Shown: positions 55,634-56,237 of the stretch, in pieces | Numbering within the stretch: position 1 is the first letter of the stretch | How the letters are laid out: the number at the start of each line of letters is the position of its first letter | Assembly: GCF_003018255.1 (NCBI RefSeq) | Contig: NZ_CP027440.1 | Source: Escherichia coli | GTDB lineage: Bacteria; Pseudomonadota; Gammaproteobacteria; Enterobacterales; Enterobacteriaceae | DNA: 64,000 bases | Reading direction: 5' to 3' (one strand) | The notes under the pieces: model-generated | What the model saw: only the letters and a program-made list of their open reading frames with translations | Databases searched by the model: none | Told to the model about the DNA's origin: nothing | Made by a program: the position numbers and the translations under genes

Positions 55634-56237
55634 AGGCATGGTTATGCCATACAGAAAGCACCAGCATTCAGAACTCCTGTGAAAGCGGCGTAGTGCCACC
55701 TGCTCAGGAGTTTTGCTATGACCCGTAATCGTGCTGACCGTTGCCACCCTATGATGCGATTAAAAAAACTCATCGTCGCGCCGATGATTGACGTCAATGC
55801 TATCGGATGATACCGGGGGTGTTCCGGAAGGAATTCCTTGTTTCCCGAACTGTTACCAACAAAATTATAACGATAAGCAAGTAAAGACCGGTTGGTGGCA
55901 GTACTGACCGGTCTGTGATGGATGATTAATTTCACCTTAAATCCTGGTGCTGTTAGGATGCTGACATTTTTCGGCTACACCATTCAGATTATGCAAATAA
56001 AGATCCAATCAAAAGATAAATATCCCTGAATATAATATATTTATAGCACCCATATCTCATCCTGGGCGATAACCCAACCATTTTTGATTAACAAATGAAA
56101 CAACTGCAACGTTCTTATTATTTCTGGAAAACGTCTCGCAAAAACAAAACAGCATGCAAAAATCCGCTTTTTTTAAATGATTTTTCGGCGTAATTTTCGC
56201 ACATACATTAATGAGTAATATATGTAAGGTATTGGTA

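Follow-up and report, generated by a model that had tools for sequence, protein, structure and literature searches.

Probable gene remnants, the yiiE control region and two conserved cis elements in an intergenic gap of the Escherichia coli fabY-fdhE junction

Introduction

Several described systems resemble what is found in the DNA that separates a toxin-antitoxin (TA) gene pair from yiiE in Escherichia coli, among them pseudogene remnants at hypervariable chromosomal junctions, leader hairpins that sequester the Shine-Dalgarno (SD) sequence (translational operators and RNA-thermometer-like elements), intrinsic (Rho-independent) terminators, autoregulatory type II TA operators (vapBC, fitAB, ribbon-helix-helix) and sigma-54 promoters. 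The present analysis deals with a segment of 64,000 nt of an E. coli chromosome (hereafter the window) and, within it, with the gap of 604 nt at positions 55634-56237, for which a preliminary description had reported no credible gene, a hairpin, AT-rich tracts and the control region of yiiE, and had proposed a small RNA or the remnant of a larger deleted element. The gap very probably consists of gene remnants in its left half (55634-55917) and of the promoters and leader of yiiE in its right half (55918-56237). It is largely ordinary, combining a decayed cassette tail with promoters and a leader that belong to the downstream gene, and its sole points of wider interest are two conserved and undescribed but conventional cis elements, namely a family of leader hairpins and a motif of ~24 nt.

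As expected for pseudogene remnants at a hypervariable junction, the left half shows homology to genes that are intact at the same position elsewhere, a broken reading frame and a surrounding junction with alternative gene contents; unlike such remnants, it retains a cis RNA structure, the leader hairpin (hairpin 1), that is more conserved than the adjacent coding DNA. Hairpin 1 resembles SD-sequestering leaders in that the ribosome-binding site (RBS) lies in the 3' arm near the start codon and the fold is kept while the inner stem varies, and it differs from them in lacking an Rfam family and in that the gene it served is dead in the window.

Gene order and conservation of the gap

The gap is placed among the following genes:

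52841-53830, plus strand: fabY/yiiD
53894-54802, minus strand: alpha/beta hydrolase gene
55031-55342, plus strand: RelE-like toxin gene
55343-55633, plus strand: NadS-type helix-turn-helix antitoxin gene, whose stop is the left edge of the gap
56238-56456, plus strand: yiiE, encoding a ribbon-helix-helix (CopG) protein, whose ATG (56238) is the right edge of the gap
56671-57600, minus strand: fdhE

The start of yiiE at ATG 56238 is that of the RefSeq annotation in the genomes compared. Of 5426 complete E. coli genomes, 5408 contain some part of the gap and 2098 contain 80% or more of it; the nearest genome in the collection (strain 500111, locus L005; 98.9%) carries an IS1 within the gap. Between the same conserved flanks, the fabY-fdhE junction shows multiple alternative gene contents (window, K-12, O157 and strain 746 types). 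The absence of an intact gene from 55634-56237 was confirmed, and the Prokaryotic Genome Annotation Pipeline (PGAP) annotates nothing here in the genomes examined.

Remnants of hyp1 and hyp2 in the left half

Judged by homology, the left half of the gap appears to be the decayed tail of a four-gene cassette composed of the RelE-like toxin, the NadS antitoxin and two further small genes, hyp1 and hyp2. Strain 746 (locus L003) has two extra annotated small genes between NadS and yiiE, hyp1 (73 amino acids (aa) as annotated; L003 3085-3306) and hyp2 (92 aa; L003 3358-3636). Compared with this strain, the window is 98% identical up to codon 17 of hyp1, is then missing ~390 nt and aligns again, at 80% identity, in the tail of hyp2, so that the left half and the DNA that follows it can be divided as follows:

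55718-55768, plus strand: hyp1 remnant, first 17 codons (MTRNRADRCHPMMRLKK), aligning to L003 3085-3135
55769-55884, plus strand: hyp2 3' remnant, approximately the last 40 codons (~110 nt), 80% identical to L003 3532-3817
55915-56010, no strand assigned: spacer conserved within E. coli, with no consistent frame, as an indel between alleles breaks the sole plus-strand open reading frame (ORF)

The hyp2 remnant contains an in-frame TGA plus frameshifts, and in a three-frame translation its tail is spread over two frames, reading HRRADD, stop, RQCYRM in one and PEGIPCFPNCYQQNY in another, where the intact hyp2 reads RRRADDRRQCHRVMQGDDPEGIVWFPDCYPQIYYY; a tblastn search of hyp2 against the window gave 61% over 18 aa. 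The deletion junction, TTAAAAAAA joined to CTCATCG at 55768/55769, is identical in L001, which is of the window type, and in O157:H7 (L004), and therefore the ~390-nt deletion is read as a single old event. According to this scheme, the old deletion in this lineage would have brought the 17-codon start of hyp1 up against the final ~40 codons of hyp2, the frame would have been lost through subsequent mutations, and two RNA structures of the lost genes, the hyp1 leader hairpin and a stem-loop after hyp2, would have survived. The DNA of the left half would most likely be transcribed solely as the 3' tail of the TA operon. The proposal that the gap might hold what is left of a larger deleted element is in this way substantiated, 55718-55884 being homologous to two small genes elsewhere between which ~390 nt were deleted; comparison of the junction with that of other strains located intact genes at the same position and showed that the region is conserved beyond this strain.

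The internal segment of the cassette that is deleted here was found in 1271 of the 5426 E. coli genomes. Genomes of the K-12 type have lost the DNA left of window position 55841, that is, the left 207 nt of the gap, and in its place they carry the 39-codon beginning of an unrelated gene, of which O157 has the intact form. The spacer at 55915-56010 is 96-98% identical to the K-12-type, O157-type and L001 alleles and 81% identical to that of strain 746.

Outside E. coli, Klebsiella spallanzanii shows the order toxin-NadS-hyp1-hyp2 as strain 746 does, and Pseudocitrobacter has toxin-NadS-hyp1 and no hyp2, with both cassettes occupying the same chromosomal place as in E. coli. Full-length hyp1 measures 70 aa in these two taxa and displays an arginine-rich N-terminus and a zinc-ribbon-like motif, CGCSCWMCG; the hyp1 of strain 746 is itself frameshifted relative to the 70-aa form. 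The hyp1 family corresponds to phrog_4499, of unknown function (E = 2e-15), and hyp1 gave tblastn matches in 450 phage records, chiefly T5-like and Erwinia jumbo phages. The identity of hyp2 between E. coli and K. spallanzanii is 57%. Neither hyp1 nor hyp2 has a family in Pfam, NCBIfam or PADLOC, and hyp2 is also without a family in the phage-family search.

That a small protein is still made from this DNA, either a 30-aa fusion product (55718-55810) or a 97-aa product of the minus strand (55642-55935), is barely plausible. The preliminary description had overlooked three features, namely the plus-strand ATG at 55718 with a strong AGGAG, the two-tier hairpin at 55668-55711 and the 20-nt motif at 56123. 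The frame that starts at this ATG, with AGGAG 7 nt ahead of it, is open to 55810 (30 aa), and the two minus-strand ORFs that had been named and dismissed for want of an RBS do exist, at 55642-55935 (97 aa) and 55553-55747 (64 aa). The argument from the RBS fails for the 97-aa ORF, which has AGGA ~7 nt before its GTG, while its dismissal as a gene holds. Although the 30-aa and the 97-aa frames are both open in the window, the latter is interrupted by stops or frameshifts in the corresponding DNA of four further Escherichia genomes (L001, L004, L005 and L008), and for this reason it is not regarded as a gene. The 30-aa frame is shifted in O157 (L004) by an additional 1-nt deletion at codon 4 of the hyp1 remnant and its tail is out-of-frame hyp2 DNA; because the hyp2 tail is scattered over two frames with an in-frame TGA, it represents a meaningless fusion. 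The silence of PGAP at this place also argues against either product.

Hairpins of the left half

The following hairpins were delimited in the left half of the gap:

55635-55648, plus strand: small hairpin GGCAT-GGTT-ATGCC right after the NadS stop (RNAalifold columns 14-27)
55668-55711, plus strand: hairpin 1, a two-tier leader hairpin with outer stem AACUCCUG/CAGGAGUU
55885-55914, plus strand: hairpin 2 (AGACCGGUUGGUG-GCAG-UACUGACCGGUCU), directly 3' of the hyp2 stop

The pairs of the small hairpin are preserved in Escherichia sequences, as evidenced by RNAalifold. By its predicted structure, hairpin 1 is an SD-sequestering leader hairpin, since the AGGAG RBS (55706-55710) of the hyp1 start sits in its 3' arm and is paired in the minimum-free-energy fold, and in intact cassettes it would gate the translation of hyp1. 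Its folding energy is -21.4 kcal/mol (z = -3.5) in the window and -21.5 kcal/mol (z = -4.6) in the intact allele. The inner GC-rich stem is weakened in the window by a disruptive change (GCGGCG..GCCAC), as is to be expected given that hyp1 is dead there.

Across E. coli, Pseudocitrobacter and K. spallanzanii, identity in the core of hairpin 1 is 86-93%, as against 70-76% for the adjacent toxin/NadS DNA. The same two-tier design, consisting of an anti-SD arm, a GC-rich inner hairpin, an SD arm and the start codon, is present ahead of hyp1 homologues and recurs with altered inner stems, at z-scores between -2.7 and -5.1, in a Salmonella contig, in Erwinia jumbo phages and in several prophage contigs. 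The inner stem is GCGGCA/UGCCGC in the E. coli type, GGGGCA/UGCCCC in the Salmonella contig and GGCCGC/GCGGCC in an Erwinia phage, and in prophage contigs it comprises 7-11 bp of unrelated sequence. These individual folds indicate that hairpin 1 is kept in relatives by compensatory change (the automatic alignments of distant members were misaligned). In T5-like phages a two-tier leader hairpin was not convincing, and nine related loci with intact hairpins gave no match to Rfam at E up to 1.

The N-terminus of hyp1 (MxRNRAERRHHxxRLKK) is reminiscent of the arginine-rich motifs with which the N proteins of lambdoid phages bind RNA. By analogy, this resemblance together with the conserved hairpin just upstream suggests that hyp1 may regulate itself by binding RNA. 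The leader hairpin offers a testable handle on the control of a widespread and uncharacterised family of small phage proteins.

Hairpin 2, which the preliminary description had placed ~3 nt to the right of its true position at 55885-55914, was corroborated by folding. As plus-strand RNA it forms 13 pairs, including G-U, with -20.3 kcal/mol (z = -3.7), the value for the minus strand being -13.6 kcal/mol, and it was found in every E. coli junction type. Its position and strand asymmetry point to a 3'-end or stabiliser structure. Like intrinsic terminators, it is GC-rich and directly follows a stop codon, and a canonical terminator hairpin occupies the equivalent position after hyp2 in K. spallanzanii; unlike them, the E. 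coli hairpin has no U-run in its tail (GUGAUGGAUGAUUAAU) and was not among the sites that the terminator scan reported. This missing U-tract and the lack of compensatory changes within E. coli are points that weigh against such a role.

An independent small regulatory RNA built around either hairpin, as had been proposed, appears very improbable. In its favor are the stability of the two hairpins (z about -3.5 to -3.7), the stronger folding of hairpin 2 on the plus than on the minus strand and the conservation of the region across thousands of genomes. However, a covariance-model search of Rfam gave nothing relevant at E up to 10 in 53500-57500, and the scan of 55634-56010 found no plus-strand promoter-like or terminator-like site flanking either hairpin, which leaves the proposed RNA without a promoter and terminator pair. 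Both hairpins are explained by the decayed genes, as hairpin 1 holds the RBS of an ATG 7 nt downstream and hairpin 2 adjoins the stop of a gene that is intact elsewhere; moreover, Escherichia whittamii lacks the whole region and K-12-type genomes lack its left 207 nt. For annotation, the value of these observations is mainly negative: the appropriate label for the gap is pseudogene remnants together with the promoter and leader of yiiE, and not small RNA candidate.

Promoters and leader of yiiE in the right half

The right half of the gap (55918-56237) is the control region of yiiE. The AT-rich tracts noticed previously are reflected in a GC content of 0.33 in 55918-56237, compared with 0.55 in the flanking genes. 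The relevant literature that mentions yiiE or yiiF is sparse; among the start sites listed in Table S5 of PMC10469882, one lies 201 nt upstream of yiiE in both MG1655 and O157:H7 EDL933, a second at 117 nt in MG1655 and another at 41 nt in EDL933, and the yiiF start site given in that study, at -189, corresponds to the -201 site of yiiE. In window coordinates, the yiiE sites fall at ~56037, 56121 and 56197, in agreement with the earlier assignment of this DNA to yiiE, or 6 nt further to the right if yiiE begins at its second ATG. The elements recognized in this region are:

56027-56043, plus strand: distal yiiE promoter, with TATAAT at 56031-56036 within TGAATATAATAT; the -201 start site falls at 56037 or 56043
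56116-56121, plus strand: TATTAT -10 box, with the -117 start site downstream
56172-56203, plus strand: proximal yiiE promoter, TTTAAA ... CGTAAT (CGTAAT at 56189-56194); the EDL933 start site at -41 falls at 56197-56203
56225-56237, plus strand: predicted yiiE RBS, AAGG (56226-56229), and spacer, as read from the sequence

The published start sites lie 1-7 nt downstream of the -10-like hexamers, depending on the ATG used. The distal sigma-70-type promoter (TATAAT 56031) would give a yiiE leader of ~200 nt, a second 5' end of yiiE would fall at the edge of the 20-nt motif described below, and the proximal promoter would be located ~40 nt before the ATG. The DNA at 56011-56143 is paralogous to that upstream of yiiF (repeats D1 and D3), D3 being the box paralogous to the distal promoter. 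The segment 56100-56240 of the leader folds worse than shuffled sequences (z = +2.2). Two points weigh against this reading of the gap: the start-site distances suit the -10 boxes better with the second-ATG start, which leaves an uncertainty of ±6 nt, and the published start-site evidence bears on the yiiE leader and not on 55634-56000.

Some further observations were made on this region. In strain 500111 (L005) the IS1 lies after window position 56166, with the motif on one side and the proximal yiiE promoter on the other; it shows a target duplication of 9-10 nt (CAAAAATCCG) and cuts yiiE off from the distal promoters. Within 56011-56456, the yiiE leader is 90.7% and yiiE 95.4% identical to strain 181.1, as against 97.6-100% for the flanking genes, and the motif inside this segment is nearly invariant. 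A peak for RpoS obtained by systematic evolution of ligands by exponential enrichment (SELEX) in the K-12 yiiD-yiiE spacer appears, by coordinate estimate, to fall in K-12-specific DNA that is absent from the window.

A conserved motif upstream of yiiE, yiiF and their relatives

The leader of yiiE contains one of the copies of a 20-nt motif that are present in the window:

54890-54909, plus strand: copy 1 (TCTGGAAAGCGCCTCGCAAA), in the hydrolase/toxin intergenic region
56123-56142, plus strand: copy 2 (TCTGGAAAACGTCTCGCAAA), within the yiiE leader, with the MG1655 start site at -117 on its 5' edge
56562-56581, plus strand: copy 3 (TCTGGAAAACGCCTCGCGAA), orphaned, as yiiF is deleted here

Sequences like TCTGGAAAACGCCTCGCAAA occur three times in the window, all on the plus strand, vs 0.01 expected, and each E. 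coli genome has matches to the motif at 1-4 places (median 2), consistent with its presence at this locus only. Relatives of YiiE and YiiF were collected from one genome per species, giving 35 loci. The relative found in Citrobacter, Klebsiella, Salmonella diarizonae, Trabulsiella, Franconibacter, Kluyvera, Lelliottia and others is yiiF with a PIN-domain gene behind it (Pfam PIN, E = 6e-19), and therefore an intact vapBC pair exists in those genera, usually with the hydrolase gene divergent upstream. Within 5 mismatches, the motif was found upstream of yiiF/vapB in 25 of the 28 non-Escherichia loci, and its distance from the start is fixed, at ~130 nt in nearly all of the loci and ~110-135 nt overall. 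When 32 distinct copies, drawn from ten or more enterobacterial genera, were aligned on the motif, they showed a sharply bounded island of ~24 nt, aT-TcTGGAAAgcg.CTCGCAaAA, with essentially unconserved flanks. The motif and the synteny of the hydrolase gene together identify the hydrolase/toxin intergenic region of the window as the ancestral hydrolase/yiiF intergenic region; based on this arrangement, the cassette and yiiE appear to have been added between that region and yiiF, along with extra copies of its right part.

As to the genes concerned, E. coli yiiF, which in K-12 is still classed among the transcription factors of unknown function, is an orphan vapB, the vapBC pair being intact beside fdhE in most other enterobacterial genera, and yiiE is an Escherichia-specific paralogue of yiiF (40% identical). 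At 56578-56634 of the window the last 19 codons of vapC (RNTRDFAGIAGVVIPYEL and the stop) immediately adjoin motif copy 3, yiiF and the greater part of vapC having been deleted, and K-12-type genomes retain yiiF (L002 3815-4057) and a wrecked vapC interrupted by repeats of the repetitive extragenic palindromic (REP) kind.

Our best guess, a tentative one, is that the motif may be a protein-binding site (operator) at or just after a transcription start, and the protein that binds it is possibly a repressor of the VapB/YiiF type, as the motif constantly accompanies a ribbon-helix-helix antitoxin gene across taxa. As in type II TA operators, it lies in the promoter/leader region of the antitoxin gene, whose partner elsewhere is a PIN-domain vapC; unlike them, it is located ~110-135 nt before the start and not over the proximal promoter, and it shows no clear dyad. 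Several facts weigh against an operator. The motif has no clear symmetry, its sole internal regularity being that CTGGAAA recurs imperfectly as CTCGCAAA, in direct orientation and 11 nt away; the strain of the window has no yiiF yet all three copies are kept; and the strand of YiiE predicted to read DNA differs from that of YiiF. A separate inverted repeat at the RBS, ATATAC-TGGAG-GTATAT, looks closer to a classical operator than the motif does.

The motif could instead be a promoter for sigma-54 (RpoN) that has GG and GC as its -24 and -12 elements and serves yiiE, yiiF and the TA cassette, a proposal that we consider quite improbable. The motif shares with sigma-54 promoters (TGGCAC-N5-TTGCA) the GG-N10-GC spacing, a variable spacer and a compact island: GG and GC are invariant in the 32 copies and stand 10 nt apart with variable bases between them, every copy is oriented to its downstream gene, and glnAp2 also has TCGC at -12. 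Unlike those promoters, it fails a test with a weight matrix built from 135 sites determined by chromatin immunoprecipitation sequencing (ChIP-seq; PMC4591121), the three copies scoring 1.6, 5.3 and 7.1 bits, against true-site values of 6.8 (lowest), 10.3 (5th percentile) and 14.4 bits (median). The matrix recovered its positive controls in the window, glnAp2 at 36792 on the minus strand (TTGGCACAGTTTTCGCT, 16.1 bits) and the intragenic fdoI site at 58063 on the minus strand (CTGGCGCGAATTCTGCA, 17.7 bits). In addition, no site near yiiE or yiiF is present in the main tables and searched supplements of the K-12 ChIP-seq study (PMC4591121), and the published start sites (201, 117 and 41; K-12/EDL933) miss the position expected for such a promoter, 87-93 nt upstream of yiiE.

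The same matrix gave 12.7 bits to 56185-56201 (TCGGCGTAATTTTCGCA), ~40 nt before yiiE, which ranks 8th among ~128,000 positions; this score is probably due to chance because no K-12 ChIP-seq peak was reported at yiiE.

A further alternative, which we regard as unlikely, is that the motif is a recombination or insertion site at which the cassette and yiiE unit were inserted. It finds support in the perfect 28-nt direct repeat of the motif that flanks the cassette in K. spallanzanii (~22 nt in Pseudocitrobacter), and in E. whittamii, where a hybrid motif (L007 2886-2905) has a left flank of the copy 1 (hydrolase) type and a right flank of the copy 2 (yiiE) type, indicating that everything between copies 1 and 2, the cassette and the whole 604-nt region included, was deleted by recombination between them. 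The yiiF-vapC deletion of the window also begins at the right edge of copy 3. However, this deletion is explained by CGC..AA microhomology with the 3' end of vapC, a deletion between 20-nt direct repeats requires no dedicated enzyme, and the cassette encodes no recombinase. Genomes with a single copy, in many genera, keep the motif just as well, an observation that an insertion scar leaves unaccounted for, and weak similarity reaches upstream of the second copies (the GAATGAAAC block), pointing to an older, longer and decayed duplication. Given this similarity beyond the repeats and the equal conservation of single copies, the repeats are read as the constrained core of an older duplication and not as an insertion scar.

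Other candidates were tried and rejected. A small ORF across the motif has frames and start codons that are unconserved between the yiiE and yiiF copies; an RNA structure within it shows pairing that is inconsistent across variants; and sigma-70 -10/-35 elements in a fixed register beside it are unconserved across genera, only an 'AT' at -2/-1 being kept. In viral contigs the motif had 9 matches, none beside a gene of the locus; as this is about the number estimated by chance for the collection, the scan was uninformative.

Returning to the operator, a more extensive and joint proposal would hold both that the two-tier leader hairpin is family-wide in the phrog_4499 family of small zinc-ribbon proteins of phages, where the hyp1 N-terminus might bind it, and that the ~24-nt motif is a shared operator coupling the cassette, yiiE and yiiF; as a whole this is possible but doubtful. 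The motif is in any case the sole conserved feature upstream of the yiiF/vapB family and an easy target for binding and reporter work.

Neighboring regions and related loci

Between the hydrolase and toxin genes, a LexA-type SOS box (CTGTATGAATGTACAG) lies at 54819-54834, ~17 nt ahead of the start codon of the hydrolase gene; nowhere else does the window match CTGTAT-N6-ACAG, for which 0.06 occurrences are expected. The pattern CTGT-N8-(A/C)CAG is retained at the corresponding position in Citrobacter, Klebsiella, Salmonella diarizonae, Kluyvera, Lelliottia, Franconibacter and Kosakonia, which suggests that the hydrolase gene, and perhaps the divergent transcript too, may be under SOS control.

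In the same intergenic region, a perfect palindrome, GTACGTCA-A-TGACGTAC (54977-54993), is located just upstream of a near-consensus promoter, TTGTTA-16-TATAAT (55002-55033 region). The palindrome, which is also present in Pseudocitrobacter, is a likely candidate for the NadS operator. The -10 box of this promoter ends 1 nt before the annotated ATG of the toxin gene (55031), and consequently either the toxin start is misplaced or the promoter does not serve the toxin.

In O157:H7 (L004 4094-5908), the hydrolase and TA genes are replaced by two hypothetical genes, of 297 and 304 aa. Strain 746 has at the corresponding position (L003 1-1262) a gene of 915 nt, the same length as the second O157 gene, that is annotated as 'transposase', the likeness between the two being one of length and position only; Pfam detected no transposase domain in the 304-aa copy of O157. 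The hypothetical genes of O157 are followed by a diverged copy of approximately the last 25 nt of NadS, and strain 746 has that 105-nt segment twice. The O157 arrangement could have arisen by a deletion between the two 105-nt copies.

Finally, an unverified 'Salmonella phage' contig (L041 484-1795) carries a hyp1-hyp2 pair with its leader hairpin behind a gene for a 133-aa CxxC protein. In this contig the pair lies in a defence-island setting, between brxA (DUF1819) of a bacteriophage exclusion (BREX) system and a homologue of a phosphorothioate-dependent restriction endonuclease, and a motif-like site with 3 mismatches (TCCGGAATGCTGCTCGCAAA) is found in the region upstream of brxA.

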